A stretch of DNA of 64,000 nt from Candidatus Bathyarchaeota archaeon (GTDB lineage Archaea; Thermoproteota; Bathyarchaeia; Bathyarchaeales; Bathycorpusculaceae). Location of the stretch: contig CAVZPM010000031.1 in NCBI GenBank assembly GCA_963777155.1, forward strand, positions 1 to 64,000. Direction: 5' to 3'. The translations under genes and the position numbers were made by a program. Positions 12,176 through 35,993 of the stretch are shown here, piece after piece. The notes below the pieces were generated by a model, which was not told where the DNA came from, did not search any database, and saw only the letters and a program-made list of their open reading frames with translations. Position 1 is the stretch's first letter; the number at the start of each line of letters is the position of its first letter.

Positions 12176-12181
12176 ATTGTC

Positions 12182-16253: not shown

Positions 16254-16374
16254 ATTTATTGTTTGGGCTTTTATCCACTTTTGTCTCATTTTTACGCTAA
16301 ACTAATATGATTTGTCGGTGCTAACGAAGCCGAATACCTTATGAATACGGCTGATTCAAAATCAACAAGCAAGA

Positions 16375-18450: not shown

Positions 18451-19534
18451 ATACTTTCGAGGGCCAACGGTGAACATGTGCAGCTTTCCCCATAACCCAT
18501 GATTCACACCATGCCTTATCAGCTAACGCCCGCTCCTCCAAGAGGAGGCAACGGTTGTTTTCGTAAGTTTTGGCTTCGATGCGATAGTTGTTTGCCGCGC
18601 TCATGTATGCATTTTTCCCTTCAGAATCCAATAAAGCGCCCGATTCGGATTCCGATTGTTTGTGTGACAGAGTTAACAAAGCCTCCCCCAAGTTTTCCTT
18701 AGCTAAAGCAGCCCAAAAAAACGAATCACAAACCTCAAAGTTGCTCGCACAAAATGCAAATATTCTCTGTGCATCCAAAACCTTGCCTCCCTGGAACATT
18801 TTAGCTCCTTCTCTGATAAGACGCAAATCAGAAATCGACAACGTGCCCAAGTTTAGCTGCACGTTTTCCGTGACTAGCCCATGGGAGTGGCGGGTTTGCA
18901 GCCGATTTAGGTCCTCTTTGGAGTTTATGTTGATGAAGCTTCTAAGTTCGGGGTCGAGGGTTTTTATGTCGTTTACTGGAGAAACAAGTAGGTTTTGCTG
19001 GCACCTCTTGGAATGTCGTCTGAGCGTGGACGCTTAAGATGCACAAAGAGTCTCTGTAATTTCCAAGGCGCTTGCGCGTTCTAGCACCATCATCAGGGTT
19101 TCAAGCCTGCCGTTTGGCCACATCGGAACAGCCACCTCAAAACCCTCTGCCTGATTGAACATGTACTCAGCTACTTTGGGCTGCAGAAAGGGCATATCAC
19201 AGGGCAAAGTAAAGCAGAAATCTGCTTCAACCGCTTTCAGACCCGACATGATTGCAACGTTTGGACCGCTGATGTGACTGATTTTTTCGTCAACAACAAT
19301 CTTAATGTTCGTTAAGGCATATTTTTTTAGCGTTTGTTCGTACTTTGCTCTGCGTTCCTCATCATTCACGCATACAACAACGTCATCCACCACGTCCTGA
19401 ACGTTTTGGATTGCGTGGATTAAGAGGGGCTTTCCATCCAGTTCAGCGAGGGCTTTATCCTGCCATGTTTTATCTATAGTTTGGAATCTGCGGGCTCTTC
19501 CCCCTGCCAAAATCAACGCAGCTCGCTTAACCAT
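18443..19534 (-). CDS. mobA: Molybdenum cofactor guanylyltransferase MobA with C-terminal extension; compensating frameshifts at ~19042 and ~18991
   Basis: LILAGGRARRF, DKA, PCDMPF; the corrected frame gives FININSKEDL and joins ORF 18443-18862. Confidence 0.8.
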
Positions 19535-19544
19535 AATGTTTCCC

Positions 19545-20097
19545 TCAATCAGAATTTTTCTTTTTTAATTGCGCTTTAACCAGTTCCACAAGCCGTTGTC
19601 CTTCCTCAGGAACTTTGATGACGGGGATTTTTTGGTAGGTCGGGGTTTCAAGGGTTTTGGCAACTATACCTGCGACCGCTAAAATCGGCTCCACCGTTCC
19701 CTCCAAGGTCTCTTTTAATCCCTCTTGGTCTTTGGCAGTGATAATCTTTGGAACATCTTTTCTTTTGCCGATTAAACTGTGGAAACCTTCGATGAAAACA
19801 ATATCCAATTTCTCCCCTTCCAAAAGGGCGGTCATTTTGTCTAAGTCGTCAAGCGACATCTCAGTCTTCTTAATTATTGCTACCTCTTCAGGCGAAATGG
19901 CAACGATGACTCTTGGCGCCTGCTTTTGCGTAACGCCAGGTATTGGATCCTTCCTTATCCATTGTAAAACCCTTGTGATGCACATGCTTTATTGAGCCAA
20001 TCTGGTAGCCCTCAGCCGAAAGCTTAGAAATTAAATACTCTAAGGTAACTGTTTTTCCAGACCCGCTCCTGCCAACAGCGGCGACAACTAAAACCAT
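19545..20097 (-). CDS. mobB: Molybdopterin-guanine dinucleotide biosynthesis protein MobB; +1 frameshift at ~19913
   Basis: GRSGSGKT, IKHVHH in one ORF, DIVFIEGF in the next. Confidence 0.85.
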
Positions 20098-20156
20098 ATA
20101 TTTGCACACTCCACTTTGGATTCCAACATTTCAGCTCTTATTGATTATCCCAACCT

Positions 20157-21263
20157 TTATTCATTATTATCATCTGCAAAGACGTTTAAAGAATCAGCAT
20201 TGAAGTTTACTTGTATTTTTTCGCCAATAGTAAGACCCAAATTTTTAATGAAGCCTAAAGGAAGCCTCGCTTTCAACAGAAAACCAACATCAACAGTTAC
20301 TTGGGCAGTTGATCGCATTTGAACCATCTCAGCTATTGTTCCCTCAACTGAGTTGGTCGCTGTGCCATTGGAAATCGGGTCGGCTGATTTTGAGAGGGTT
20401 ATGTTTTCGGGTTTTATTGTAGCAATGATGTTTTTGCCGATTAAGTTGGGGGCTGAAGGCGCTAATAATATTATGCCGTTTGTTTCAATTTCCATTAACC
20501 CAGAATTTATTTCAACAGCTTTGCCCTTGAAGGAGTTAACTCCGAGAAACTTTGCAACATACCCTGAATTGGGTTTATCAAAAAGGTCTGCTCCGCATCC
20601 AATCTGTTCTATGTGTCCGTTGCCCATTACTGCTATTCGGTCTGACATGATGAATGCTTCAGATAAATTATGAGTAACGTATACAACTGTAATTTTTAAT
20701 TTCTGCAAATAATTCTTGAGCTCCAGCCTAAATGACTCCCTCAGCTGTGGATCAACCGCGGAGACTGGTTCATCTAAAAGCAGTACCTGCGGCTCTGTAG
20801 CCAGCGACCTCGCAAGTGCCGTACGTTGCTTTTGTCCACCACTGAGTTGATGCGGATAGAACCTTGCATAATCACGAAGCCCCACAAAATCAAGCAGTTT
20901 CTCAGTTCTTTTTTTCACTTCTTGCTTTGGTAAATGCATTGCCTTCAATCCGTAGGCTACATTATCTTGAACTCGCATGTGGGGAAAAAGGGAGGTAGTT
21001 TGGAAGACGTAGCCGACTTTCCGTTCGGAGGGGTTGAGGCAGACTTTTTTGGAGTCGCTTTTTCCGTTAACTAAGACGTTATTTATGTAGATGTTGCCTT
21101 GGTCTGGTTTGATTAATCCTGAGAGGATGTTTAGGAGGGTTGTTTTTCCGCATCCATTGGGTCCAAGTAAGGTTAGGATTTCATTGGTTTTAACTTCAAG
21201 GTTGAGGTTTTTAATCACTTTTTTTTCGCCGAATGATTTGGAGACTGCTTCGATTTTTATCAT
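20157..21263 (-). CDS. modC: Molybdate/tungstate ABC transporter ATPase with TOBE domain
   Basis: GPNGCGKT, LSGGQ, LLLDEP, C-terminal TOBE. Confidence 0.88.
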   Translation of the reverse strand: MIKIEAVSKSFGEKKVIKNLNLEVKTNEILTLLGPNGCGKTTLLNILSGLIKPDQGNIYINNVLVNGKSDSKKVCLNPSERKVGYVFQTTSLFPHMRVQDNVAYGLKAMHLPKQEVKKRTEKLLDFVGLRDYARFYPHQLSGGQKQRTALARSLATEPQVLLLDEPVSAVDPQLRESFRLELKNYLQKLKITVVYVTHNLSEAFIMSDRIAVMGNGHIEQIGCGADLFDKPNSGYVAKFLGVNSFKGKAVEINSGLMEIETNGIILLAPSAPNLIGKNIIATIKPENITLSKSADPISNGTATNSVEGTIAEMVQMRSTAQVTVDVGFLLKARLPLGFIKNLGLTIGEKIQVNFNADSLNVFADDNNE

Positions 21264-22081
21264 TTTTTGTTCCCGAACCTTTTCTGTTCAAGCAGCTTGA
21301 TGATTATGAGGATGCTGAAGGCTATTACGATTAAAATGATAGATAACATGATTCCGGCAAAAGGGTGATCTGAATACAATAGCGTGTAAATTGCCAAGGG
21401 CATCGTCTGAGTTACTCCCTGTAGGTTTCCCGCAAACATGAGTGTTGCACCAAACTCGCCCATTGCACGTGCCCAAGTCATCATAGTTCCAGTGATGATT
21501 GCGCGTATAGTTAGCGGTAAAGAAACTGTGAAGAAAACCCGCAGACGTGACTCTGATAAGATTTTAGCGCTGTTAATTACGTCGCGGTCCATGTTTTCAA
21601 ACCCAGTTTTCGCTGCCCTCAACAGGAACGGCGATGCCACAAAGACTTCAGCGATTATAACTGCGATTGTGTAGCCTGGTATAACAAACCCAAACATGTT
21701 CAGCAACGGACCTAAGAGTCCTTTTGGCGCGAAAGCCAAGAGCAAGGCAACACCAGCAACAGCCGGCGGAAGAACAAAGGGCAAATCGATTACGGTGTCA
21801 ATAATTGCTTTGCCAGGAAATTTTCTTGTCGCCATAAAATAGGCGGTAGGAACCGCCAAGATAAAGACGATTAGGGTGGCAATTGCTGAGGTGAATAAGC
21901 TGAGTTTAACCGTATCTATGATTTGTGAATCTTGTAGTTGAGAGCTAATTTGACCTGGCTCGATTCTTAAAAAAACCGCCAGGATTGGTAAGGCTACAAA
22001 AAGAAAGTATGTTAAAACGATGAGACCCAGAATCACCAATATGATTTTGTTCGAAAGCGAATTGCTGATTTTATGCTTCAT
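21260..22081 (-). CDS. modB: Molybdate ABC transporter permease
   Basis: DLPFVLPPAVAG, WARAMGEFGAT. Confidence 0.92.
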   Translation of the reverse strand: MKHKISNSLSNKIILVILGLIVLTYFLFVALPILAVFLRIEPGQISSQLQDSQIIDTVKLSLFTSAIATLIVFILAVPTAYFMATRKFPGKAIIDTVIDLPFVLPPAVAGVALLLAFAPKGLLGPLLNMFGFVIPGYTIAVIIAEVFVASPFLLRAAKTGFENMDRDVINSAKILSESRLRVFFTVSLPLTIRAIITGTMMTWARAMGEFGATLMFAGNLQGVTQTMPLAIYTLLYSDHPFAGIMLSIILIVIAFSILIIIKLLEQKRFGNKK

Positions 22082-22137
22082 CGTTTTTTACCGTTTGATT
22101 ATTTAAAAAATGGTGAATAGGTGCTTAATATTCACTT

Positions 22138-23154
22138 TTACGAGTTGAAACCGAATTGCGTTAGTAACGTTTGTCCTTGGATGCTGGACCAGTAATCCAT
22201 GAATTTTTGGGCTAATGCTGATTGAGTTGTTTGCTGAACGACGCCTATGCCGTATGTGCCTTTGGTGTTTACGTCTGCTGGGATTGGCATGAACTGCACT
22301 TGGGCGCTTGTCATGTTACCCCAGACTGCGTCAGAGACAAACACGATGCCTGCGTCGGCGGTGCCTACGTTAAGCGATACTGCTCCTACGACTTGTTCAA
22401 CGGTTAATTGGTAGTTAACTACGTTTGCATGCACGGTGGCGTTGTAGTTTATGTAAGAGCCGTTAATGACATATGCCGCGTTGCCTACTTTGCCCCATGT
22501 TTGATCGATTTTCCAGCATGTTGTATTGGTGTAAGAACCTGAAGGAATCATCGGGTCAGCGAACACCAATTTTACTCCAGACTTAGCTAAATCTGCAAGC
22601 GATGTTATGGCTTTGGGATTACCCTGCGCAATTATCACAGAGAGGCTGTTTGTGGTGAAGTTCACGTAGTTGCTGTCGCCGTAGAGGAGTCCTGCCGTGC
22701 TTAGTTGTTTCGTCCATTTTTGGTCTGCGGACATGAAAACGTCGCACGGCGCGCCTGAGGTGATTTGGGTGTAGAGTGCGCTTGATGAGTCAGAGTTGAT
22801 TATTAGGTTGCAGTTGTTTGCTTGTTCGAATGCTTGTGTCATGTTGGCTACGACATGGACTAAGCTTGATGCTATGTCCACTCTAAGATCTTTTGGTACT
22901 GGTGTTGGGCTTGGTGAAGCTGTAGGAGCAGATGTTATAACAGGTGTTGGTGAGGCTGTGGGTCTTACTGTCGTTTTTATCGTTGGTGAGGGTTTCGGTG
23001 TAGGTGTTGGGGAAACTGTTGGTGACGGTGAAGGTGTGGGCGTTGGTGTAGTCGTAGTGTTTGGGGAGGATGTTCCGTTGTATAGGAGATAGCCTGCTGC
23101 TGAAGCTAAGACTATGATTATTACCAATGCTGTGGCGATGAATTTGTTAATCAT
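22138..23154 (-). CDS. modA: Molybdate-binding protein with TM anchor and P/T/S-rich linker
   Basis: ASSL, SSALYTQI, DVFMSA, DAGIVFVSD. Confidence 0.9.
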   Translation of the reverse strand: MINKFIATALVIIIVLASAAGYLLYNGTSSPNTTTTPTPTPSPSPTVSPTPTPKPSPTIKTTVRPTASPTPVITSAPTASPSPTPVPKDLRVDIASSLVHVVANMTQAFEQANNCNLIINSDSSSALYTQITSGAPCDVFMSADQKWTKQLSTAGLLYGDSNYVNFTTNSLSVIIAQGNPKAITSLADLAKSGVKLVFADPMIPSGSYTNTTCWKIDQTWGKVGNAAYVINGSYINYNATVHANVVNYQLTVEQVVGAVSLNVGTADAGIVFVSDAVWGNMTSAQVQFMPIPADVNTKGTYGIGVVQQTTQSALAQKFMDYWSSIQGQTLLTQFGFNS

Positions 23155-23628: not shown

Positions 23629-23703
23629 GTTAATCGTTTCATTTAATGGAGTGTGGGGAATTAAGTATAGTGTTCGTTTGGGTTTTTGTGCTTGTTTGTT
23701 TTA

Positions 23704-23727
23704 CGTTGTGTTTATGTGGACATAACG
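23704..23727. promoter_or_regulatory. Second putative ModE-type box (CGTTGT-N12-ATAACG) in the modE/nfnA divergent region
   Basis: Same 24-bp geometry as the modA site. Confidence 0.5.
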
Positions 23728-23807
23728 CACAAGCTTTTAATAGTATATACAGTATATACGACACATGCCAATACATACTGCGTAAGTTTGGGGGAGGCAG
23801 CAAAAAG

Positions 23808-24689
23808 TTGCTAAAGCACATTAAAGAAATAGACAAAACCCAAGGAACCATAGTGGAAAAACAACAAGTCAACCCTGTGACCAAAAAAATTACCCTCTAC
23901 GCCCCTATCATAGCAGCAAAAGCCAAAGCAGGACAATTCGTAATACTAAAAGTACACTCGGACAGCGAACGAATACCCCTAACCCTATCATCCTGGGATA
24001 AAAAGCAAGGCACAATCACAAATATATTCCAAGAAATAGGGTACTCAACAACCGAACTGGGGTCTCTCCAAGTAGGAGAAAAAATCCTGAACGTAGCAGG
24101 TCCTTTAGGAAACCCAAGTGAAATTAAAAATTTTGGGGTTGCTGCCGTCGTATGTGGAGGACTCGGCACAGCAGTAGCTTATCCAGTTGCTAAAGCGCTT
24201 AAGGAAGCTGGAAACAAGGTCATATCCATAATGGGTGCAAGAACCAAAGAACTATTCATATTAGAAGATGAAATGAGAGTGGTCTCTGATGAAGTATTTT
24301 TCACATCAGATGACGGCTCAAAGGGTCAAAAAGGATTCGTAAGCGACATTTTGAAGTCGTTAATCGCTAAAAACTACAACTTTGATATAGTTTTCGCAAT
24401 CGGACCCCCAATAATGATGAGTGTAATAGCAGACATTACCCGTCAATACGGCTTAAAAACAATCGCCAGCCTCAACCCAATAATGGTTGACGGTATGGGC
24501 ATGTGCGGAGCCTGCCGAGTCACCATCGGAGACAAAGTTAAGTTTGCATGTGTAGACGGTCCCGAGTTTGACGCTCACCAAGTTAACTTCAAAGAGTTAA
24601 TGCAGCGGCTAAAAAGTTACTGTACGGAGGAAAAACATATTTTGACAGTTCAAAAACCCGGAGGTACTTGTCAGTGTCACGGTCAGTAA
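23808..24689 (+). CDS. nfnA: NfnA/SudB-type FAD/NAD-binding [2Fe-2S] subunit
   Basis: GQFVIL..ERIPLT, GPLG, DGMGMCGACRV..CVDGPEF; TTG start after GGAGG. Confidence 0.88.
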   Translation: MLKHIKEIDKTQGTIVEKQQVNPVTKKITLYAPIIAAKAKAGQFVILKVHSDSERIPLTLSSWDKKQGTITNIFQEIGYSTTELGSLQVGEKILNVAGPLGNPSEIKNFGVAAVVCGGLGTAVAYPVAKALKEAGNKVISIMGARTKELFILEDEMRVVSDEVFFTSDDGSKGQKGFVSDILKSLIAKNYNFDIVFAIGPPIMMSVIADITRQYGLKTIASLNPIMVDGMGMCGACRVTIGDKVKFACVDGPEFDAHQVNFKELMQRLKSYCTEEKHILTVQKPGGTCQCHGQ

Positions 24690-26140
24690 AAGAGGAAGCT
24701 AGACCTCATAATAGGTTTAGGGCAATTGAAGCAGCAAAACAAGAACCTTCCGCACGAGTAAAGAATTTCGGGGAAGTTGTTTTAGGTTACACGGAAGAGC
24801 AAGCAATAGCTGAAGCTTCCAGATGCTTAAACTGTCCAAACCCCAATTGTGTTGGCGGTTGCCCAGTAGGCGTTAACATCCCTGCGTTTATTTCCTGTAT
24901 CAAAGAAAGAAAATATCAGGAAGCCATCTCAAAAATTAAAGAGAAAAACAGTCTTCCCGCCATATGTGGGCGAGTTTGCCCTCAGGAAGAACAATGCCAA
25001 AAAAACTGTATAATGGGCAGAAAAGGCGAATCAATCTCGGTTGGACGGCTTGAACGGTTTGTCGCTGACCTTGAACACGAGAAAGGCATGGTGGCTAAAC
25101 TGGCTGAGGCGTGGAACGGTAGAAAAGTAGCTGTGGTGGGTGCGGGTCCAGCAGGGTTAACCGTAGCAGCGGACTTGGCCAAATTGGGGTATCATGTGGT
25201 TATTTTTGAGGCTCTTCATCTTGCAGGAGGCGTATTGGTTTATGGTATTCCAGAGTTTAGATTGCCCAAACGCATTGTTCAAGCAGAAGTTGATTACATA
25301 AAACGGTTAGGTGTGGAATTGCAGACCGATTCTTTGATAGGTAGACTCTATACTATTCCCGAGTTGTTAGCACAGGGTTTTGATGCAATCTTTGTGGGCA
25401 CAGGCGCTGGTTTGCCGAAGTTTATGGGTATATCTGGCGAAAACCTCTGTGGAATTTACTCAGCTAACGAGTTTTTAATACGCGTCAATCTTATGAAGTC
25501 CTATCAGTTTCCAAAATCCAAAACACCTATCCACATGGGCAAGAAAGTGGTAGTCATCGGCGGCGGCAACGTAGCGTTGGATTCTGCACGCTGTGCAATA
25601 CGGTTAGGCGCGGAAAGCGTTTCGATTGTTTATCGACGCTCTCGTGAAGAAATGCCAGCTAGAGAGGAAGAAATTAGCAACGCTGAGGAAGAGGGAATAC
25701 AATTCAAGTTCCTTGCTGCACCAACAAAGTTCATAGCTGATGATCATGGACAAGTTAAAGCAATGGAATATGTAACGATGAAACTAACAGAGCCAGACGC
25801 GACGGGCAGAAGCAAACCTGTTCCAATCAAAAGTTCAGAAACCATAGTAGATGTTGACATTGTTATTGTTGCCATTGGACGTACGCCTAACCCAATTATT
25901 CAAAGCACAACTGAAGGGCTAAAAACACTAGTTGGTGGAATAATCGACGTCGATAAAGGGACGGGCTTAACCAGTTTGGAAGCGGTTTACGCTGGCGGCG
26001 ACATAGCTACAGGCGAATCAACAGTTATTAGCGCAATGGGGTCAGGAAAAATAGCTGCTAAAAGCATAAACACCTACCTCAACAATAAAAAAGAGAAATT
26101 GCTATTGATGCATTCTGCCAAAGCAACTAAACCGATGTAA
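24668..26140 (+). CDS. nfnB: NfnB/SudA-type (GltD-like) subunit of NADH-dependent ferredoxin:NADP+ oxidoreductase
   Basis: EASRCLNC..CP, CGRVCPQEEQC, GAGPAG, GGGNVA, AGGD. Confidence 0.88.
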   Translation: MSVSRSVKEEARPHNRFRAIEAAKQEPSARVKNFGEVVLGYTEEQAIAEASRCLNCPNPNCVGGCPVGVNIPAFISCIKERKYQEAISKIKEKNSLPAICGRVCPQEEQCQKNCIMGRKGESISVGRLERFVADLEHEKGMVAKLAEAWNGRKVAVVGAGPAGLTVAADLAKLGYHVVIFEALHLAGGVLVYGIPEFRLPKRIVQAEVDYIKRLGVELQTDSLIGRLYTIPELLAQGFDAIFVGTGAGLPKFMGISGENLCGIYSANEFLIRVNLMKSYQFPKSKTPIHMGKKVVVIGGGNVALDSARCAIRLGAESVSIVYRRSREEMPAREEEISNAEEEGIQFKFLAAPTKFIADDHGQVKAMEYVTMKLTEPDATGRSKPVPIKSSETIVDVDIVIVAIGRTPNPIIQSTTEGLKTLVGGIIDVDKGTGLTSLEAVYAGGDIATGESTVISAMGSGKIAAKSINTYLNNKKEKLLLMHSAKATKPM

Positions 26141-26149
26141 CTCGCTTTT

Positions 26150-27190
26150 TTATTCTTCGTTTAAGCCGCTTGAATCTGGATTTGCTACTTTAAAAGCGCG
26201 GTTTACCGTCATCTCAGCCATGGCAAAAGCGCAATGACAAATTCTTTTTATATCATCTCGTGTTGAACAGATGCCGCAGACTAAATCCGCGCTCTTTGGT
26301 TGTCCAGTGAAGGATTTTGTAGCTATTTCAACTTCGGCTTTGTCCATTTTTTGCCGATACTTCATTATCTCGACTGCTCCAATCACATCCTTCGAGAAGA
26401 AAGCCCCAATTCCTTTAGTGTAGAGGTCTAAAACTTCTTTGCCTGTTGTAATCATAATCTGCAAGACGTCAGCAGGAATCTTTTGTTTCGCACCGTTAAG
26501 CATGATAATGTGCTTTGCGATGTCGGCGGCATAATCTGCAGCGTATTCCATTCGGTAAACCAGAATTTGGTGGTCCATACAGTCAAGGGGGTCAACATGC
26601 AATTCATTGGCTAAGATAGGATCTTGGGCGGCGTTACGTAGAATTCTTAGGATAAAAAAAGCAAAGTGGTCTACATCTTCATCTAGCGTCATCACTGATT
26701 TTGCCAGTTCAATATCGCCGCTTTGAAGCGAGTTAATGGCTCCTTCAACCATCGAAGACGAGATAAGATGCATGCGCTGGATTGCCTGTTCAAGGGAGGC
26801 TTTTGATTCGTCCATAAGACTTTGGATGTAGACGCATTTTGAGTCTGCTTCCATAACTCTCATATAGAGTCTTCCTGCCATACGGCGGATTGTCTTTGTC
26901 TGAGTAACTGAAAAAATCTTATCGGATGTTAGAATTATGCCTGAATAACCGTTGAGGAAGGCTCCTAGTATCTTTTGGCTTATGAGGAGGTCTTCTTCGT
27001 TTTGTCCCACGCTAAGTGTAATTTCTTTAGGTTCAGATTTTTTGAGTGCGGGGTGAACTACTAATGAGCGGTCGCGTTGGATGTTGAATGAGACAGAGTC
27101 GCCTTTTTCCAAGTTGTTTAGTTGCATCCATTCTTTTGGAAGGGATATAACTAGAGAGGATTTGCCTAAGGACATGATTTTTCGTTCCAT
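26150..27190 (-). CDS. AbrB-PhoU family regulator
   Basis: N-terminal RKIMSLGKSSLVISLPKEW (AbrB-like) plus two PhoU-like repeats (LDEDVD, EYAADYAADIA). Confidence 0.88.
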   Translation of the reverse strand: MERKIMSLGKSSLVISLPKEWMQLNNLEKGDSVSFNIQRDRSLVVHPALKKSEPKEITLSVGQNEEDLLISQKILGAFLNGYSGIILTSDKIFSVTQTKTIRRMAGRLYMRVMEADSKCVYIQSLMDESKASLEQAIQRMHLISSSMVEGAINSLQSGDIELAKSVMTLDEDVDHFAFFILRILRNAAQDPILANELHVDPLDCMDHQILVYRMEYAADYAADIAKHIIMLNGAKQKIPADVLQIMITTGKEVLDLYTKGIGAFFSKDVIGAVEIMKYRQKMDKAEVEIATKSFTGQPKSADLVCGICSTRDDIKRICHCAFAMAEMTVNRAFKVANPDSSGLNEE

Positions 27191-27327: not shown

Positions 27328-28374
27328 TTAAGCCTCGAAAACTTTCGCGTTCTTGAGCACACTAACGTTACCCTTGCCTTTTGTTACATACCCGACTTCG
27401 AAGTGACTGACTTTCCGCTTGTCTAGTTCACTTAGTAAATCATCAACGTTCTCTTTGTCAACTGCAATAAGCATTCCACCTGCCGTTTCCTTTGCTTCAC
27501 CCTGTAGCAGAGGATAACCGAAAATTTCTGTCAATATAGGCGTACCACGAATAACCGCCAATTGATCAATAACGATATCGACATTGCTCAGAACCGCCAT
27601 GTTACCAGCGTGGCCTTTCAATCCGAAACCCGTCACGTCTGTGGCTGCGTGCACAGGTACTTTCTGCATAGCTTCGGCGACAGGTTTGTTTGAGGTAATC
27701 ATTCCTTCAATGGCTTCAGCGACAGCCGTCTCAACCAAATCCTCTGGTACCTCTTTGAGAAGTTCTCTGCCTTCCTCTTCCTTACGTAAGCGGTAAGCAG
27801 CCATCGCAGGCGCAATCCCAAGCGGCTTAGTCAAAAACAGCCTATCACCAACCTGTGCACCCTTAGTGTAAATAATTTTCCTTATTTCACTAACACCCGT
27901 TGCTGCACCACCAATGATTGGCCAAGGATTCCGAATCGTGTGCCCACCAACTACGGGTGCCCCCATTTCGCGGCAGAAATCACCAAACCCCTTAAGCATC
28001 CCAACAGCCAACTCGTCGGGCATATTCTCAGGAAATGCCATGATCGACAAAACACTGACAATGTCTGTTACGGCTAAAGCGTAGATATCGCTTGTCACGT
28101 TGCTACCGGCGATTCTGCCTTGAATTTCTGGTTCATCAACAATGGGTGTGAAAAAATCAAGTGTATTGAGAACCGCAAGGTTGCTGGTAATTTTTACAAC
28201 GCTGGAGTTTTCCCATGGTCCAGCCAATATATCCTCACTAAAAGTCTCTGTTAAACCTGCCTTATCGAGCAATCCACCTAACTGGTACTGCGGGAGTTTG
28301 CAACTGCAACCGTGAACTGGAACAGCTTTTGTCAATCTGTAATTCAAATTTAGTTTGCCTCCAACTGTCGACAT
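27328..28374 (-). CDS. selD: Selenophosphate synthetase SelD family (Cys form)
   Basis: RLT...HGCSCKLP, DFFTPIVD, SDIYA, GGHT, LTKPLG, ATDVTGFGL.GH, ETAGG; start at 28374 (ATG) or 28347 (TTG). Confidence 0.92.
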   Translation of the reverse strand: MSTVGGKLNLNYRLTKAVPVHGCSCKLPQYQLGGLLDKAGLTETFSEDILAGPWENSSVVKITSNLAVLNTLDFFTPIVDEPEIQGRIAGSNVTSDIYALAVTDIVSVLSIMAFPENMPDELAVGMLKGFGDFCREMGAPVVGGHTIRNPWPIIGGAATGVSEIRKIIYTKGAQVGDRLFLTKPLGIAPAMAAYRLRKEEEGRELLKEVPEDLVETAVAEAIEGMITSNKPVAEAMQKVPVHAATDVTGFGLKGHAGNMAVLSNVDIVIDQLAVIRGTPILTEIFGYPLLQGEAKETAGGMLIAVDKENVDDLLSELDKRKVSHFEVGYVTKGKGNVSVLKNAKVFEA

Positions 28375-28447
28375 TATTCCCAAGAGCACATGGGAATTAA
28401 AGGTATAAAAATATTCAAATCTAAAAAAAGGGAAAAAATAGAGTTGG

Positions 28448-29737
28448 TCATTTTCTTTTTGCCTGTATGATTTCAAGAAACGCTTCAATTCTGGTTTTTA
28501 TCTGCTCAGAATCACCCATTGCATAGTCCGTTTCAATCTTTAGCATCGGCAAACCTAACGTCTTCAACGCACGATCCACTTTAACGCCTTCAACGTTGTA
28601 ATCGTGGCAGTTTTGCAGCGTGTAATAGATTACACCTTCCACTTTGAATTGCTTGGCCAAGTCAGTAACGCTCTTTATGCGTGCATCGTTTGGTGTAAAG
28701 CACGCACAGGGAATCTGGCTGTATTTTTCCACCATAGCCCGGAGCAAATCACTCAAGTTATCACCTTTTGGCTCAACCAAATTGGTAAAATACCGTGTGC
28801 CTACGCAACTCTCCTCAACAATCACTGAAGCGCCCGCCGCTTGGGCGATGCTGTGTACTTTCCAGTTAGGAATCGCCATTGGACAACCAGAAATCATAAC
28901 CTTCGGTGCATCTTTAGCTGTGACACCTTCGCCTTTAGCCACGCGCTTGTCGAGTTCGTCGCAGAGTTCGTTGACTTTTGCGGTGAATCGTTTTACGTCG
29001 TCGTTGAAGCTGATTTGGTAAATGAGTAATGCATCTAAACCGCTGATGGGTGATGGGTTGTTTTGGCGTAAGTCGGATAGTCGTTTGAGTGCTTTGCGCT
29101 TATTGTTTATGAGTTCAATTGATTCTTTTAGTTTTTCAGCAGTTATTTTGTTCCCTGTAACTTCTTCAAGTTTAGTTTTGAAGGCTTCAAGTTCTTTGTA
29201 CCAAAATTCTTTGCCTTGTTCTGTATCTGGTTTGTGTGGAACTTCCAAAACATAGGTTGGAATTAACTCGTTCAGGAGCTCGTAAACTTTCTTTTTGCCA
29301 TCACAGGTTGTTTCTCCAACAACAAGGTCGCTTGATTGGAAGTACGGGCAAGTTTTGTTTAGCCTGAAGCCATAGAACGACTTAATTAAGGGGCAAAGAT
29401 TTCTCGGCAAGACTGCTTCTGCATCAGGAACGGAAAAATCCGCGCCTCCACATAATCCAACCATCGTTGCGTCTGCCGCGTATGCGAGTTCTTCTGGTGC
29501 GTAGATGCAGAATGCACCGATGACTTTTTTGCCTTTCATTCTTTGATCGTTGAGTTCTTTAATTCTTAACCCATGGATTTCGGAGACTACAAAGTCAAAG
29601 TAATCCATTTTTTTTGGTCTGTTTTTTTGTGATAAGTAAACTGCTGTGTAGTACTGTCCTAGGATGTTTAGAAGTTGGTTGTGTTTTTCTATGTCCATCC
29701 CCAGGGTTTTCCACATTTCTACATAGTTTTCTGCCAT
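28448..29737 (-). CDS. Double-cubane cluster protein (DCCP; HgdB/2-hydroxyacyl-CoA dehydratase family)
   Basis: FCIYAPEE, GLCGG, NLCPLIKS, GETTCDGKKK, SGCP, EESCVG, CACFTPN, KIETDY, TRIEAF. Confidence 0.85.
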   Translation of the reverse strand: MAENYVEMWKTLGMDIEKHNQLLNILGQYYTAVYLSQKNRPKKMDYFDFVVSEIHGLRIKELNDQRMKGKKVIGAFCIYAPEELAYAADATMVGLCGGADFSVPDAEAVLPRNLCPLIKSFYGFRLNKTCPYFQSSDLVVGETTCDGKKKVYELLNELIPTYVLEVPHKPDTEQGKEFWYKELEAFKTKLEEVTGNKITAEKLKESIELINNKRKALKRLSDLRQNNPSPISGLDALLIYQISFNDDVKRFTAKVNELCDELDKRVAKGEGVTAKDAPKVMISGCPMAIPNWKVHSIAQAAGASVIVEESCVGTRYFTNLVEPKGDNLSDLLRAMVEKYSQIPCACFTPNDARIKSVTDLAKQFKVEGVIYYTLQNCHDYNVEGVKVDRALKTLGLPMLKIETDYAMGDSEQIKTRIEAFLEIIQAKRK

Positions 29738-29779
29738 AGTAGTCACATGCCATTGGGGAGGTTATTGGAAAGTCGTATT

Positions 29780-29816
29780 ATTAAAATTTTTGATAAACAA
29801 TATTAGAAATATTGAT
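29780..29816. promoter_or_regulatory. Tandem LysR-type T-N11-A boxes upstream of the DCCP gene
   Basis: ATTAAAATTTTTGAT (29780-29794) and ATTAGAAATATTGAT (29802-29816), starts 22 bp apart. Confidence 0.5.
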
Positions 29817-29822
29817 GTGTGC

Positions 29823-30056
29823 TTAATGTTTCTTAATTACGACACTAAACTCTGCACCAGACTTAACAGCTTCAACCACTTCATGTCCGTTGTTCTTGAC
29901 CCAACGCTGAACATTATCAAACTCCAACTCCCCCTCGCCAATAACCTCCAACAACTGCCCCACAATCATGCTTGCCAACTTACGCTTAGTAAATGCTACT
30001 GGCAACGGGCACATTTGACCCCTAACATCCAACTTTTCAATTTCCAAAAACGTCAC
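29823..30056 (-). CDS. tusA: TusA/SirA-family sulfur carrier
   Basis: LDVRGQMCPLP (CPxP motif). Confidence 0.9.
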   Translation of the reverse strand: MTFLEIEKLDVRGQMCPLPVAFTKRKLASMIVGQLLEVIGEGELEFDNVQRWVKNNGHEVVEAVKSGAEFSVVIKKH

Positions 30057-30415
30057 TAGAACACTATTACTTTATCACTATTAACTGTCCATTCGACAAG
30101 TTCATGAACGGTCGCGATTTTTACCCCATCAAAGAGGTCAGCCTGGGTCAAGCCACGCGCTTCAACGCAGACTACACAAGCCTTCACTTCGACGCCGCCT
30201 TGAATTAGATTTTCCAGGTTTTGGCCGTAGTTGATTAAGCCTTGGGCAGGTTTTTGGCCTTTTTTCGCGAGGTAGACGCCGTTTTCGAAAAGCCAGATTT
30301 TTACTTTGTGGCCTTCTATGTCGCAAGTTGCGGCGAACCTTAACGCTGACATTGCACGTTCTTTTCCGTATGGAGCTTCATTTATTATTAATGTGAATGT
30401 TACCAGACCGTCCAC
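30056..30415 (-). CDS. DsrE/TusD-family sulfur relay protein
   Basis: INEAPYGKE, LFENGV, ACVVCVEARG; start uncertain. Confidence 0.88.
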   Translation of the reverse strand: MDGLVTFTLIINEAPYGKERAMSALRFAATCDIEGHKVKIWLFENGVYLAKKGQKPAQGLINYGQNLENLIQGGVEVKACVVCVEARGLTQADLFDGVKIATVHELVEWTVNSDKVIVF

Positions 30416-30418
30416 AAC

Positions 30419-30455
30419 CTCAATTTTCCTGATAGGTGTTATTAAAAAAACTAAT
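30419..30455. promoter_or_regulatory. Tandem LysR-type T-N11-A boxes in the dsrE/lysR divergent region
   Basis: CTCAATTTTCCTGAT (30419-30433) and ATTAAAAAAACTAAT (30441-30455), starts 22 bp apart. Confidence 0.5.
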
Positions 30456-30532
30456 TTAAGGCTTTTCCAAACAAAAAGCAAATATCATATAACAAAACCA
30501 TTCTAGAAGCACACAATTAAGGCGCAAAGCAT

Positions 30533-31465
30533 ATGGAAACGATAAGACTCGATTACCTTAACACCTTCCTCACGGTAGCCAGAACTCGTAGCTTCTCAGC
30601 GGCAGCCAAAGAACTCAAAACCAGCCAAGGCACAATCAGCCACCACATAGCATCTTTGGAAACATATTTTGACGCTGAACTATTCAAGCGCACTGCAAAC
30701 GGTGTCGAAGTCACTAATGCAGGAGCAACCATCAAACAAACTGCTGAAAAAATCCTCCAACAAGCTCAGGACGCAAAAACAACAATATCAACTGCTAAAC
30801 TTAGTTTGTCAGGAACAATAAAAATCGCCGCAAGCACTATTCCTGGAGAACATATAATCCCCAGCTTAATTGCTGGATTCCATAAAAAATATCCGGACGT
30901 AAAATTCAAGATAAAAGCTCAGGACAGCCTGGACAGTTTAACTAGCCTGCAAGCTAACGATGCTGATTTTGCGGCAGTAGGTACGCTGCAAGGGGTTGAG
31001 GAAAAATTTGATTTCCTCCAAATTGGCGAGGAACAACTAGTTCTCATTGTACCCTGCAACCACGAGTTATCAAAGCATAAAACATCTAAATTAAAAGAAA
31101 TTCTTGCTTACCCGTTCATTAACCGTGAAGAGACTTCTGGAACAAGAAAAGAAATTGAAGGTTTATTCAAAAGTAACAGCATAAACCCTCAGCAGTTGCC
31201 GGTAGTGTTGGAGCTCGGAAGTACCGAATCGGTGATAACAGCGGTTTCGGAAGGTAGAGGTGTAAGTATTATTTCTTCGATCGCTGCTAAGAAAGCTCAA
31301 TCAGCAAGTCTAATTAGAATAGTTAAAATTGAAGAGGCAAAAAATCCCAGAAAACTCTATATGGTAAGACCAAAAAGACAGCTTCTGAAGACTTTCGAGG
31401 CTTTTTGGGAATTCTGTAAGGATTATAAATTTAAAAATGAAGCTATCTTATGCTCCACTGGTTAG
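30533..31465 (+). CDS. LysR-family regulator (CysL/selenium-metabolism-associated type)
   Basis: SFSAAAKEL..SQGTISHHIASLE HTH; ASTIPGEHIIP, REETSGTR. Confidence 0.92.
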   Translation: METIRLDYLNTFLTVARTRSFSAAAKELKTSQGTISHHIASLETYFDAELFKRTANGVEVTNAGATIKQTAEKILQQAQDAKTTISTAKLSLSGTIKIAASTIPGEHIIPSLIAGFHKKYPDVKFKIKAQDSLDSLTSLQANDADFAAVGTLQGVEEKFDFLQIGEEQLVLIVPCNHELSKHKTSKLKEILAYPFINREETSGTRKEIEGLFKSNSINPQQLPVVLELGSTESVITAVSEGRGVSIISSIAAKKAQSASLIRIVKIEEAKNPRKLYMVRPKRQLLKTFEAFWEFCKDYKFKNEAILCSTG

Positions 31466-31839
31466 GAGTCATCTGTATCTTCGTCAAGTTTAACCCAGAT
31501 TTTTCCCGACTGAACTTTCCATTCAAATATTTTTAGCTTCATGGATGGTTCTTCCTCGTATTCGCCAGTTTCCAAGTTGAAGCGCCAGTCATGGCATGGG
31601 CAAACAATTACCAAGCCATCAAGGGTTCCGCCTGAGAAACCGCATCCTTGATGTGGACACCTGTTATCTATTGCAAAAATTTTTCCTTTCTGCTTAATGA
31701 ACAAGACGGGTGTTCCCTCAACTGAAACGCGCTTCATTTTACCTTCTTCCAAGTCTTTTTCTTCCAAGGCGTCAACAAATCCATCAGTGTTATCCAAGTA
31801 TTTTATCTCCAAATCAAATTGGTTATGTGCAACGAACAT
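31462..31839 (-). CDS. Rieske [2Fe-2S] ferredoxin
   Basis: CPH...CPCH Rieske motifs. Confidence 0.9.
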   Translation of the reverse strand: MFVAHNQFDLEIKYLDNTDGFVDALEEKDLEEGKMKRVSVEGTPVLFIKQKGKIFAIDNRCPHQGCGFSGGTLDGLVIVCPCHDWRFNLETGEYEEEPSMKLKIFEWKVQSGKIWVKLDEDTDDS

Positions 31840-32765: not shown

Positions 32766-34127
32766 ATGGAAGATTATTGTAGGCTTTTGCTTGAAGATTT
32801 CTTGAAGACTTCTTTTTCAACGGTGAAAGTTCTGGTTGAAGGCGCCGCGGCTTTGAAGGGGCAGAACAGCAACCGCAAAGTTACGTTGTTTCGTTATGTT
32901 AACGGCAAAAAAGTTTCTTTTCCCTTTTCCGATGAACGATTCTACTTGCGCGGCTCGGTTGAATATACTAATCCGCAGCTGACTGTTGAGGAAGTTCAAG
33001 GAATCGTCGGGACCCGTTTGCTTGAAACATGCGCTAACTACTTCTTCGAACGTGGGTTGCATCAGTTCGACGACGGCGACGTAGTTGCGCTTATAGAGTT
33101 GCTTAAGAAACCCACCCAAGGACACATCGTTCCTTTTCTCCTGAACACGGATGATGTGGAGGCTGACCGTTATTCCATGAATCCGCTCAAGCAATCAATC
33201 GTAGATAGTGGTCAGAGCGCTTTTCCCGCTGCCAACGTTAAAACTGACCAGCTGAAAATCGATGAAGCATACCTCAAAAAATACGATGGCACATTAATTT
33301 CCCAAAAAGAAGCCACGCTAATTACAGAGAGTCTCCAGGCAAGCAATGGCTCATATCTTGATTTTGTTGATTCAATCAAATATTCCCAATTAAAAGAACT
33401 TTCAGAGTTCTTCGGTATGGACCTCTCCCTCTACACGTTGCGTATGCCGCTTTCAACCCTGAAGACAGAGAACAAAGATGGCTTGCTCCATTACATAATT
33501 CGAGAAAGCAACTGTGATTACGCTTCCATTGAGGAGGCTTACACTTGCATGGGGCGCAGTATGAAAAACCGAACAACACTACTGACAGTGCCGCATTCTA
33601 ACAAAGGCTTTGGCTCCAAACGTGCAGCACGAGGCAAACTACATTTCGAAAACGGAAAACTGCTTGATGCAACCGTCAAATACAAAACCACCCCACTTTA
33701 CCCTAACGCCATGGATCCCGAAGACATAGCCGTAGCAGTATGCGATGACAGCTTTACAGTAACAGGCGAAAAACTCTCTGACTACAGTTATAATGAAACT
33801 CCTTCTTCGCCCCAGTTCTTCCTATACTCGATTGGTTCCCCAGAGGACGCGACAGTTTGGCATGGCGTAGGCGCATTTGCAGCTCCGCAGCTTCTTCAAA
33901 GTTATCGTTCAGGTCGCGTAGCTTGTCGGGAAGGACGATTAATCAAGAATTTAACTGAAAAATACAACATCAAAGTGGATGTTCCTTTGCAGTTTAACCT
34001 CGCACCCGAAGGCATATGGAGCCATCCAATCCACCGCAACATAGACGCCAGCATCGGAAGCGTAGAAGATCTTCCCGATCTTGCGCATCGAGGAATGAGG
34101 CTTGAGTACCTTCCCGCTTTCAAGTAG
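32766..34127 (+). CDS. Hypothetical protein, 453 aa, no recognised family
   Basis: Long ORF 3 nt after the GNAT stop, GAGGA SD. Confidence 0.8.
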   Translation: MEDYCRLLLEDFLKTSFSTVKVLVEGAAALKGQNSNRKVTLFRYVNGKKVSFPFSDERFYLRGSVEYTNPQLTVEEVQGIVGTRLLETCANYFFERGLHQFDDGDVVALIELLKKPTQGHIVPFLLNTDDVEADRYSMNPLKQSIVDSGQSAFPAANVKTDQLKIDEAYLKKYDGTLISQKEATLITESLQASNGSYLDFVDSIKYSQLKELSEFFGMDLSLYTLRMPLSTLKTENKDGLLHYIIRESNCDYASIEEAYTCMGRSMKNRTTLLTVPHSNKGFGSKRAARGKLHFENGKLLDATVKYKTTPLYPNAMDPEDIAVAVCDDSFTVTGEKLSDYSYNETPSSPQFFLYSIGSPEDATVWHGVGAFAAPQLLQSYRSGRVACREGRLIKNLTEKYNIKVDVPLQFNLAPEGIWSHPIHRNIDASIGSVEDLPDLAHRGMRLEYLPAFK

Positions 34128-34142
34128 GAGCAGATTTGCACT

Positions 34143-34682
34143 TTGACGGCTTTAGAATATACGATGTTTAGAATTTTGCGGTTGTTCAGGAAACTCCCCT
34201 TTAACATACTTGGGGTTGGAAACCAAAAGGTTATTTTCACAGAGTTTTTCAAAGGGTTCGAGAAAGTTGATGCTGTAAAAGGTATTTTTGGTGAAAAAAC
34301 CGAGGAAGTTCTAAGTCACCTCACAGTGGAGATCAGCTGGACAATGGGCTACATGTATGTGGATGGTTCCGATGGGCACCTTGTGATAAGCAAAGGCTAC
34401 CTCAACAATGGCGACAAAATTGACATTTACCTTGACCTAATCCATGAGTTGTGCCATGTGAAACAGTTCAGGGAGGGCAAAGAACTCTTTGATCCTCGAT
34501 ACGATTACGTCGACAGACCTACAGAAATTGAAGCTTATCGTTACTGCATTCAAGAGGCAAGACGGCTTGGATTAAGCGAGGAAAGAATCCGTTGCTATCT
34601 ATGGACTGAGTGGATGGATGAGGATGATTTTAGGCGGTTGGCAAAATCAGTTAACGTTCAACTTGCCAGTGCTTCATCGTAA
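34143..34682 (+). CDS. Putative zincin-like metalloprotease
   Basis: LIHELCHVKQ (HExxH) and downstream PTEIEAY; start uncertain. Confidence 0.7.
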   Translation: MTALEYTMFRILRLFRKLPFNILGVGNQKVIFTEFFKGFEKVDAVKGIFGEKTEEVLSHLTVEISWTMGYMYVDGSDGHLVISKGYLNNGDKIDIYLDLIHELCHVKQFREGKELFDPRYDYVDRPTEIEAYRYCIQEARRLGLSEERIRCYLWTEWMDEDDFRRLAKSVNVQLASASS

Positions 34683-35849
34683 ATTTTGAGCAATTTTTGT
34701 GCACATATGTCCCAAGTGAAGCTTTCAGATACGAATCTGCGACCGTTGGTGCCCATTTTTTCCTTCAAAGCTCTGTCGGAAAGAACCTTCAGCAAAGCAT
34801 CCGCCAATTCCCCGGTGCTTCCAGGTTTAACCAGAAGCCCTGTTTCGCCATTCCGAACGGCTTCGTTGATTCCACCAACATCAAAAGCAACAACTGGAAT
34901 ACCTGATGCTTGCGCTTCAAGCAATACAATTCCTTGCCCCTCCTGAATGGATGGCAAAACAAACACGTCAGCGCAACTGTAGACTGCTGAAAGCCTATTG
35001 TCTTCGAGGTTACCCATGAACAGGAAATTGCCCAAAAGATTTGCCTTCTCAAGAGAGGCAGTCAACTGATTCTTTAGTGGACCATCGCCGACAATTAGGA
35101 ATTTGGTATTAGCTTTTTCCTTAACCATTTTTTTAGCTGCTTCCACCAAAAATGGCAAGCCCTTACGAGGGATTAAGCTTCCAACAAAAAGAACACATGG
35201 CTCATCACCCAATCCAAACTTGCGCCTGATTGTCTTCTGAGTTTCCTGCTGGCTTGAATTTTTCGACATCAACGCCATTTGGAACTATCCGAACCTTGCT
35301 TTTGTCAATGTGGTAATGTTTTTGGATTTTTTCAAGCGAATAATTGCTTATTGTAACAATTAAAGTTGCGTCATGTGCCGTTTCCTCTTCCAACTTGGCA
35401 AGACCATGCATAAAATAGTTTGCAAGTCTACCCCTAACTGAATGGTAGCCTTCTTTTTTTGCCTGTTCATACTCGTCGGCGAGAACGCCATGGATTGTAT
35501 GGATGAATGGTTTCTTGATTTCTTGTTTCTCAAGTGTTTTGGGGAATCCATAGCCGCTTACTGCATGAGCCTCATAAACGTCTGCGTCAATCTTGCCGGC
35601 TTTCTTAGTTAAGCTCCGGTTGAAGAACCAGTTGTCCAACGGAAAAATTCTGTCTGTTGAATAGCACGGGACAAAATCTACCCCATTAATGGAGGTGGTT
35701 TTTTTGAATCCTGCTTTCGTGCCGCTGTAAATGGTTATGTCTATTTGGTTTTGTAGTCGCTTAGTTGTTTCCATTATGCGCCGCTCAACTCCCCCAAAGT
35801 ACAGGTGGGGCGGTTGGGTGTTGAAGACAGCTAAGCGAAACTTTTCCAA
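34658..35849 (-). CDS. GT4 glycosyltransferase; +1 frameshift at ~35245
   Basis: GGVERR, HTIHG, PNGVD, then FVGSLIPRKG, EGQGIVLLEAQA across two ORFs. Confidence 0.85.
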
Positions 35850-35993
35850 ACAAAGGACACCTTCATCGGTTTTGCTGGACTCTATATTTGCAGGGTTAAG
35901 ATATAAGCTGTACTTTCCTTGATGGTGAACAGCCTTAAATCTAAAAATTTTAGAGCATGTGTACATAAATGGATAATCTAAAGAATTATCTGG

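Follow-up and report, generated by a model that had tools for sequence, protein, structure and literature searches.

An orphan selenophosphate synthetase in a conserved DsrE-TusA-SelD cassette of Bathyarchaeia, with a double-cubane cluster protein as optional companion

What is the purpose of a selenophosphate synthetase (SelD) in a cell without known selenium traits, and what is the cellular role of the double-cubane reductases? The two questions meet in a single gene cassette of a peat-dwelling Candidatus Bathyarchaeota archaeon (NCBI GenBank assembly GCA_963777155.1). We analyzed positions 1 to 64,000 of the forward strand of its contig CAVZPM010000031.1, hereafter the window, which corresponds to contig C31 of a Bathyarchaeia metagenome-assembled genome (MAG; G000 in our sample) of 2.29 Mb in 39 contigs, rated 90.6% complete. 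The contigs closest to the window are likewise from Bathyarchaeia MAGs. An initial annotation had described the interval 27328-31465 as four co-oriented genes transcribed divergently from a LysR gene. All five genes lie there, and profile scores bear out their families: on the minus strand, in order of transcription, dsrE, tusA, the gene for a double-cubane cluster protein (DCCP) and selD, with LysR on the plus strand.

27328 to 28347, minus strand: selD, Cys-type selenophosphate synthetase (selenide, water dikinase), 339 aa; the mechanical open reading frame (ORF) runs to 28488
28448 to 29746, minus strand: DCCP, double-cubane cluster protein of the HGD-D family, 432 aa; an optional insert between tusA and selD
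29823 to 30056, minus strand: tusA, TusA-family carrier, 77 aa, with MCPLP
30056 to 30415, minus strand: dsrE, DsrE-family carrier, 119 aa, with a CVVC...R redox motif; the mechanical ORF runs to 30481
30416 to 30532, no strand: divergent control region, the 117-nt dsrE-LysR spacer, studied in an alignment of 25 orthologous intergenic regions
30533 to 31465, plus strand: LysR, a LysR_Se / HrsM-like selenium-associated regulator, 310 aa, with HTH_1 and LysR_substrate domains

The GTG that starts tusA shares 1 nt with the stop of dsrE. For selD, comparison with orthologs points to the TTG at 28347, which follows a GGAGG, as the probable true start. The encoded SelD belongs to the archaeal/eukaryotic type; among solved proteins, human SEPHS1 is its best relative. 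SelD matches both AIRS domains (PF00586 in the N-terminal and PF02769 in the C-terminal part) and scores 334.6 bits against NF010705 (cut-off 291) and 233.8 bits against TIGR00476 (cut-off 125), but only 37.9 bits against NF038049, a model of SelD-related sulfur proteins (cut-off 250). By these scores it is a true SelD and not one of the SelD-related sulfur proteins. Its HGCSCK motif, which aligns to GTGCK of SEPHS1, is written CAC GGT TGC AGT TGC AAA, with TGC codons at 28306-28308 and following; the Cys-type assignment of the initial annotation can thus be read directly from the codons. We take this N-terminal G-[UC]-x-C-K loop, from work on the E. coli and A. aeolicus enzymes, to provide the catalytic Sec/Cys and Lys.

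No use for the product of this enzyme came to light in G000. The best tRNA-Sec candidate in the genome scored 40.8 against the Rfam cut-off of 47, and ARAGORN, which counted 37 tRNAs there, reported none. SepSecS was not found in G000 by a profile search whose positive controls responded, nor was PSTK (best 19.7 bits). Relatives were sampled as 80 DCCP loci with their flanks, 26 cassette genomes (G000 and 25 others) and 41 genomes of the window's genus, alongside a class-wide SelD profile search of 401 Bathyarchaeia genomes. SelU/YbbB gave no match at E<=0.001 in G000 or any other of the 26 cassette genomes, and YqeC was found in none of these 26, or of 31 once five orphan genomes lacking DCCP were added, again with responding positive controls. 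YqeB was not found in G000, the sole genome searched for it, and SenB (TIGR04348) was not found there either, the best matches, of at most 41.7 bits against a cut-off of 300, being generic glycosyltransferases; SenA was not searched for. The SelD of G000 is an orphan, without any of the known uses of selenophosphate, and with none of these markers found the cassette is Sec-independent in this genome, as had been proposed. The proposal had cited the lack of a tRNA-Sec in the window, where the only tRNAs are indeed tRNA-Pro and tRNA-Ala.

Comparison with relatives places this absence in context. SepSecS passed its cut-off in 6 of the 26 cassette genomes and tRNA-Sec in exactly those 6, adjoining SepSecS, which leaves 20 that are Sec-less, a closed 2.7 Mb chromosome (G014/G372) among them; Sec markers are also absent from the single-contig 3.0 Mb genome G393. 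Sec decoding in some Bathyarchaeota is already in print, as is a PSTK-SelB fusion described for this group (PMC9499178), and we find the fusion in 2 Sec-positive genomes, while G000 and two single-contig orphans lack it. Because the markers are missing from closed and single-contig orphans while the same models detect them in sister genomes, their absence does not stem from gaps or divergence. SelD passed its cut-off in 38 of the 401 Bathyarchaeia genomes and in 29 of the 41 genus genomes. SepSecS occurs in four of these 41, all SelD-positive, so that 25 genomes of the genus are SelD-positive and Sec-negative (14 with DCCP and 11 without).

The orphan SelD is under strong purifying selection. 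Pairwise Nei-Gojobori estimates gave a dN/dS of 0.061 for SelD over 54 pairs with 0.05<dS<1.5, and of 0.057 over the 36 pairs in which both genomes are Sec-less; the values for its partners are 0.071 (DCCP), 0.091 (DsrE) and 0.121 (TusA). In the SelD tree Sec-positive and Sec-less genomes are interleaved on short branches, the Sec label requiring at least 3-4 changes, and orphan and Sec-serving SelDs are 76-92% identical with the same dN/dS. Cys occupies the active site in all 26 cassette SelDs that adjoin DCCP, Sec-decoding hosts included. No SelD other than that of the cassette passes the cut-off in the Sec-decoding genomes G212, G391 and G408; judging from this gene content, the cassette ortholog must make selenophosphate, and its service to Sec synthesis in relatives speaks against the orphans having turned to sulfur.

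The cassette arrangement is not due to chance, because the order DCCP-SelD recurs in 26 of the 80 DCCP loci (25 Bathyarchaeia-type genomes), 24 of which have the full set of DsrE, TusA and divergent LysR, the contigs of the other two beginning at DCCP. The linkage that the initial annotation expected to see conserved in other genomes is therefore real. A SelD homolog lies in the flank of 10 bacterial loci, and the remaining 44 have none. The constant core, behaving as a unit, is DsrE-TusA-SelD: a DsrE ortholog is present in 28 of the 29 SelD-positive genus genomes versus 2 of the 12 SelD-negative ones, and in all five DCCP-less cassettes that we fetched (L093-L097), which include one single-contig and one 100%-complete genome and in none of which YqeC was found, DsrE-TusA-SelD follow one another with nothing between. 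One cassette locus (L022), titled Candidatus Limnocylindrales bacterium (Chloroflexota), is an archaeal cassette at 72-86% identity, and its taxonomic label looks wrong; the genome in question (G013) also has an archaeal SepSecS and tRNA-Sec. Genome G420 splits the system, with a Sec-type SelD beside PSTK-SelB at ~0.95 Mb (L098) and DsrE-TusA-DCCP at ~2.43 Mb (L099). Its SelD ortholog has TGA at the first Cys of the motif (HG-U-SCK), and the LysR match beside its DsrE-TusA-DCCP is broken into two overlapping parts, perhaps through a frameshift.

Extended forms of the cassette point to the element that it handles. In L093, L026 and L033, LysR is followed divergently by a split YedE, a second TusA, DUF3343/Se_S_carrier, a YjeF_C-like gene, DsrE, TusA, an optional DCCP and SelD, and the best match of the split YedE is TIGR04112, 'selenium transporter'. 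Together with the Se-type LysR and the service of the same SelD as the sole SelD of Sec-decoding relatives, these Se-type companions support the view that the cassette would handle selenium, as the initial annotation had suggested, and not only sulfur. Its expectation of similar sets in anaerobic bacteria was also borne out: in the Dehalococcoidia locus L057 a LysR_Se is followed divergently by DCCP, an activase ATPase, DsrE and a SelD of the bacterial type with an in-frame TGA in GAG-U-ACK, and tblastn matches and ORF layout give similar sets in L061, L063, L068, L071 and L082 (Dehalococcoidia/Chloroflexota). This pattern indicates that the same gene set was assembled independently around different SelD lineages, and its assembly around both archaeal-type and bacterial-type SelD argues for functional coupling of the set. 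A DUF3343/Se_S_carrier gene with a YjeF_C-like (Carb_kinase-like) gene behind it is found close to DCCP in the SelD-less Nitrososphaerota-type loci L036 (2721-4600) and L039 (2471-4300) too, and the same pair adjoins SelD in the deltaproteobacterial locus L046 (1800-5466); on these grounds the small carriers look like a hub to which SelD or DCCP attaches.

The carriers themselves are conserved at their reactive positions. TusA scores 67.5 bits against PF01206, and at least 30 of 31 orthologs retain its 'MCP.PVA'; the best NCBIfam matches of TusA are the YedF models, at 41 (cut-off 79) and 33.3 (cut-off 110), both below threshold. DsrE scores 80.6 bits against PF02635 and carries the motif CVVCVEARG, whose C-x-V-C-x3-R (C80, V82, C83, R87) is invariant in 32 cassette DsrE proteins from Bathyarchaeia and Dehalococcoidia, the latter having CGVC. 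It gave no match to the YedF models at E<=0.01 and 47.1 bits against TIGR03012 (cut-off 89.25). The best 120 of its 269 homologs, all at least 76% identical, are named 'tRNA 2-thiouridine synthesizing protein D' or 'DsrE family', and none of these 120 provided a link to Methanococcus TusD.

The regulator passes the cut-off of NF040786, 'selenium metabolism-associated LysR' (264.5 bits against 250). It holds the same position in 24 Bathyarchaeia loci and adjoins DCCP in 7 Chloroflexota loci, 6 of them also with SelD. LysR_Se is reported to occur in Sec-decoding organisms ('almost all'; Lin et al. 2015, PMC5322559); here, by contrast, the host is without Sec machinery, like 20 of the 26 cassette genomes overall. 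Conservation across the 25 aligned loci marks two TATA-like boxes (TTATAT) in the control region, a TTA-N7-TAA (T-N11-A) dyad at 30439-30455 and a second block at 30476-30492. The region is AT-rich, and boxes and dyad would be compatible with archaeal promoters and a LysR site. A sequencing-run search with words from the window listed no RNA run, only wetland, bog and soil DNA runs containing less than half of the words.

The DCCP belongs to its family by sequence, scoring 501.2 bits against NF040772 (cut-off 350) and 511 bits, over the full length, against the solved DCCP of C. hydrogenoformans (PDB 6ENO/7YYL). The double-cubane Cys pattern noted in the initial annotation was confirmed, all seven cluster cysteines (80, 99, 118, 148, 314, 347 and 380; spacing X18, X18, X29, X165, X32, X32) aligning to Cys of the solved protein, although the spacing is one residue off at two spacers versus the motif printed in the Haft preprint. 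Across 80 sequences (the window's and those of 79 loci) six of the cluster Cys are invariant, while Cys314 is Arg in one. We looked in the same sequences for a signature of SelD linkage and found none: Cys288 varies without pattern between C, S and T, and Cys262, which is Ala in five SelD-less genomes, is variable elsewhere too.

The presence of DCCP in the genus is patchy. A high-scoring copy occurs in 17 of the 41 genomes, 16 of which are SelD-positive (the exception is 88% complete); expressed the other way, DCCP is present in 16 of 29 SelD-positive versus 1 of 12 SelD-negative genomes, directly adjoining SelD in 13 of the 16, and absent from 13 of the 29, close sisters of G000 included. 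DCCP-less cassettes are scattered across the SelD tree, the nearest SelD neighbour of the window being one of them. The clade to which the window belongs in the SelD tree is also seen in the DCCP tree, where the other groupings are not recovered; within that clade repeated loss of DCCP would be the simpler reading. Outside the genus, SelD is found in 6 of 12 archaeal genomes with DCCP orthologs. DCCP is therefore an optional, labile accessory, which tracks SelD in the genus while SelD does not need DCCP, and not the integral member of the module that the initial annotation took it for. Its absence from 13 of 29 SelD-positive genomes also makes it unlikely to be the sole destination of selenophosphate.

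A DCCP needs a cognate ASKHA-type ATPase as its reductase, and as the initial annotation had observed, no DCCP ATPase is encoded in the cassette. The annotation had seen none in the window at all, yet G000 does possess candidates: its only two BcrAD_BadFG genes both lie on contig C13 (C13:32600-36400, L090 6607-10330), where the genes for a NapH-like polyferredoxin and a DCCP paralog precede the pair, which code for distinct BcrAD-type ATPases. At 342.6 bits the paralog (36% identity) falls just short of the cut-off, and several cluster Cys are missing from it; a paralog of this type is present in nearly all genomes of the genus, SelD-negative ones included. In all 26 cassette genomes the BcrAD_BadFG pair lies away from the cassette, and the C13 ATPases may serve the cassette DCCP in trans.

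From these observations we propose, with slightly better than even confidence, that the locus is a regulated cassette for the acquisition and activation of selenium in which DCCP acts as an accessory low-potential reductase. The HrsM-like LysR_Se regulator would control the divergent dsrE-tusA-DCCP-selD operon. DsrE, through its CxxC, and TusA, through its CPxP, would act jointly in the manner of a split YedF, binding reduced selenium as perselenide and passing it to the Cys-type SelD for ATP-driven synthesis of selenophosphate. DCCP would stand between carrier and SelD, its very-low-potential reduction, driven by the two BcrAD-type ATPases of C13, freeing selenide from a refractory form such as elemental or polymeric selenium, an organoselenium compound or carrier-bound selenium. 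The sink in G000 would be none of the four known ones, namely selenocysteine, 2-selenouridine, the YqeB/YqeC Se-Mo cofactor and selenoneine/selenosugar. A supplier role fits DCCP better than that of a destination, because it sits among acquisition-type genes and depends on the SelD unit and not vice versa. This role is also suggested by the DCCP cluster, which resists dithionite and Ti(III) citrate and is reduced only with ATP hydrolysis (PMC9351452), and by related genes of Methanococcus maripaludis, in which selenium starvation raises TusAD-type and yedE transcripts 4.5-5.3 log2-fold in a response mediated by the LysR regulator HrsM (PMC11097638). A bacterial DCCP is likewise reported to sit among selenium-supply genes (Kountz and Balskus 2023, PMC10418091). 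Since 11 orphan genomes keep DsrE-TusA-SelD without DCCP under the same constraint, another sink would have to exist in any case, and a further consumer of selenophosphate in the genus appears probable.

Several points weigh against this proposal. No selenophosphate consumer was found, so that 'utilisation' is deduced solely from retention and purifying selection; G000 is 90.6% complete, and among the DCCP-less orphans YqeC was searched in five, the SelU and YqeB tests not covering all of them. YedE was not found in G000, which leaves the entry route of selenium unaccounted for, and DsrE and TusA fall below every curated YedF/TusD cut-off. Because five Nitrososphaerota-type genomes have DCCP orthologs (60-64% identity) without SelD, some with DsrE-like/DUF3343 neighbours, DCCP and the carriers apparently also work without SelD. 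Since thiols are enough to reduce selenite, it is moreover not evident why an ATP-driven reductase should be required, and the very negative Se(0)/HSe- potential, which we take from general background, was not confirmed in the papers checked for it.

An alternative that we consider unlikely makes DCCP itself the client, with selenophosphate supplying the bridging chalcogenide ([8Fe-8S-Se] for [8Fe-9S]) and with DsrE and TusA as delivery chaperones. The initial annotation had entertained such a cluster, which Haft and Gwadz had already printed as a formal possibility, and by their count 955 of 970 high-scoring DCCPs belong to SelD genomes (bioRxiv 10.1101/2022.07.06.499078). The distribution in the genus is similarly suggestive (16 of 17 DCCPs in SelD-positive genomes, 13 of the 16 directly beside SelD), DCCP is the only obvious Se-linked enzyme in 14 orphan genomes, and G420 keeps DsrE-TusA with DCCP, not with SelD. 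A Se-bridged cluster cannot, however, explain the 11 same-genus orphans (one single-contig, one 100% complete) that keep a constrained DsrE-TusA-SelD without such a DCCP. Selenium as an obligate bridging ligand is further disfavoured by the five archaeal genomes with 60-64% DCCP orthologs and no SelD, and no sequence signature parts SelD-linked from unlinked DCCPs, the cluster Cys being invariant in all but one of the 80 sequences. The solved C. hydrogenoformans protein, which presumably has sulfur at the bridge, also counts against this idea. We give still less weight to detoxification or buffering, in which carriers and SelD would trap reactive selenide and the product would be exported, methylated or stored. 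The failure to find a consumer would suit it, as would an orphan SelD beside a TPMT/TehB-like methyltransferase in G089, from a different Bathyarchaeia family, and a methyltransferase downstream of SelD in the Dehalococcoidia locus L057. Spending ATP on a labile, reactive donor would nevertheless be an odd route, the conserved core contains neither methyltransferase nor exporter, the same SelD serves Sec synthesis in relatives, and the related Methanococcus genes are reported to rise on selenium starvation, not on excess (PMC11097638).

That SelD makes a thiophosphate or persulfide-derived donor for sulfur trafficking in the Sec-less genomes seems very unlikely to us. G000 has no selenium trait, and a SelD-derived sulfur enzyme has been proposed for the SelD-like proteins of Crenarchaeota (PMC9312934). 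The window's SelD, however, passes two SelD equivalog cut-offs and reaches only 37.9 of 250 bits on NF038049; orphan and Sec-serving SelDs have the same dN/dS, are 76-92% identical in sequence and are interleaved in the tree; and the cassettes are accompanied by Se-type LysR, YedE and DUF3343. DsrE and TusA are classical persulfide carriers, which does speak for sulfur. The explanation to which we attach the least credence is that of a SelD only seemingly orphaned, its Sec, SeU or Se-cofactor pathway being hidden in the unassembled 9% or having diverged beyond detection. The 90.6% completeness of G000, its mere 37 tRNAs by ARAGORN and the decoding of Sec by 6 of 26 cassette relatives leave some room for it. 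Against it, SepSecS, tRNA-Sec and PSTK-SelB are present together or absent together, they are absent from the closed G014/G372 and the single-contig G393, the same models detect them in sisters, which removes divergence as a cause, and neither SelU (0 of 26) nor YqeC (0 of 31) was found in any genome searched, with positive controls responding.

The surroundings of the cassette were considered for further members and partners. A link to the neighbouring Mo/W enzyme, suggested in the initial annotation, found no support: FwdDBAC (11756-16253), with FdhD, MoeA and a ModA-type ABC transporter behind it, is separated by ~11 kb from the cassette, NfnAB-like and PhoU-like genes lying between, and no evidence linking the two was found. 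This W/Mo block (11756-23154) comprises FwdD, FwdB, FwdA, FwdC, the FdhD sulfurtransferase, MoeA and the transporter; FwdB, at 519 aa against a 421-position model, matches in two stretches and may carry an insertion. Between the block and the PhoU-like gene lies an NfnAB/SudAB-like pair (23646-26140; FAD/NAD-binding and GltD-like subunits), whose large subunit falls short of the threshold, with 293 versus 835 bits, in its match to the model 'putative selenate reductase subunit YgfK'. The PhoU-like gene (26150-27190) was considered as a member and treated as a flank, since just 6 of the 26 DCCP-SelD loci, along with L094 and L095, have it downstream of SelD. A Rieske gene (31462-31839) was likewise considered, as it is syntenic in 18 loci and stands directly before DsrE where LysR is missing (L096, L097). 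Orthologs at 59-71% identity persist in the SelD-negative genomes G374, G377, G378 and G395, while 7 SelD-positive genomes yielded none; the Rieske gene is a flank of the insertion site and not a member. Elsewhere in the window, two overlapping minus-strand ORFs in different frames (34658-35966; 206 aa and 253 aa) resemble one GT4-type glycosyltransferase, probably through a frameshift or assembly error, and large ORFs at 3312-5585 (757 aa) and 32766-34127 (453 aa) have no Pfam match.

Stand-alone SelD genes were also inspected. Their neighbours in G152, G119 and G089 have nothing in common, that in G119 belonging to a multi-copy family. In G089 (L106, 9733-11494) a Cys-type SelD, in a genome without SepSecS or DCCP, is convergent with the TPMT/TehB-like methyltransferase gene, with an integrase near, which may be a selenium-methylation context.

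How does the cassette compare with known systems? Bacterial DCCP-SelD neighbourhoods are in print in a STRING table for Slackia (Lin et al. 2015, PMC5322559), in Haft and Gwadz 2022 (bioRxiv 10.1101/2022.07.06.499078) and in Fig. 5 of Kountz and Balskus 2023 (PMC10418091). The window resembles these LysR_Se (selR)/DCCP/DCCP-R/selD neighbourhoods in that a Se-type LysR adjoins DCCP and SelD, with small S/Se carriers, and in that DCCP is almost confined to SelD genomes. It differs in having an archaeal/eukaryotic-type SelD with Cys, where the bacterial-type SelD of L057 has Sec, and in a cassette without ATPase and with TusA, in a host without Sec, SeU or YqeBC trait and a genus in which DCCP is dispensable. 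LysR_Se, YedE, YedF and DUF3343 are listed as candidate selenium genes, with YedE split in archaea, by Lin et al. (PMC5322559). The cassette shares with that set a CPxP TusA-like and a CxxC DsrE-like unit adjoining SelD, the YedF motifs CPxP and CGxC/CxxC given there being matched by MCPLP and CVVC, and the extended Bathyarchaeia cassettes add a split archaeal YedE and DUF3343 as described for archaea. YedF, however, is one polypeptide in the order TusA-DsrE, whereas the window has two genes in the order DsrE-TusA, both below the YedF cut-offs, and G000 has no YedE. TusBCD/DsrEFH relays, for their part, have three paralogous subunits, and the cassette has one DsrE gene (47.1 versus 89.25 bits on TIGR03012).

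The HrsM regulon of Methanococcus maripaludis/voltae offers an archaeal LysR-type selenium regulator under which starvation induces TusA/TusD-type genes and yedE (PMC11097638). The window's LysR is likened to HrsM through a shared NCBIfam model alone, and the settings differ: Methanococcus decodes Sec and HrsM switches Sec/Cys isoenzymes, whereas G000 is without Sec and its regulator stands beside a carrier-SelD operon. The C. hydrogenoformans DCCP/DCCP-R system, an ATP-dependent very-low-potential reductase (PMC9351452), is matched at 511 bits with all cluster Cys; its DCCP-R is a homodimer, whereas G000 encodes two distinct ATPases, away from the cassette's contig and next to a paralog. In the orphans collected by Haft and Self in 2008, by contrast with ours, SelD is reportedly explained by YqeB/YqeC; both are absent from G000, and YqeC from the 31 genomes. 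The likeness lies in SelD being kept without Sec or SeU (Haft and Self 2008; PMC9312934), and for bacteria orphan SelDs of an 'unknown trait' are in print with an isochorismatase-like protein and an ABC ATPase as markers (PMC9312934). A partial literature search, outside supplementary tables, returned no description of an archaeal DsrE-TusA-DCCP-SelD cassette or of an orphan SelD in Bathyarchaeia. For bacteria, both the link between DCCP and SelD and the notion of a Se bridge have already been published.

Taken together, the genus of the window forms a natural comparative series, with genomes that have the full cassette, the cassette minus DCCP, the cassette plus Sec, or nothing, some of them closed. 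Its natural knock-outs make the client of SelD findable by phylogenetic profiling, and both the role of DCCP and the selenium trait behind the orphan SelD testable. It is a possibility to which we give somewhat less than even weight that the genus has an undescribed SelD-dependent use of selenium, with DsrE-TusA as its delivery arm and DCCP as a selenide-freeing, ATP-driven enzyme or as a selenium-containing metalloenzyme itself. Such a use would, if true, be a further selenium trait in archaea, and as Bathyarchaeia are abundant in peat and sediments, a new use or mobilisation of selenium by them would bear on selenium cycling in anoxic soils.

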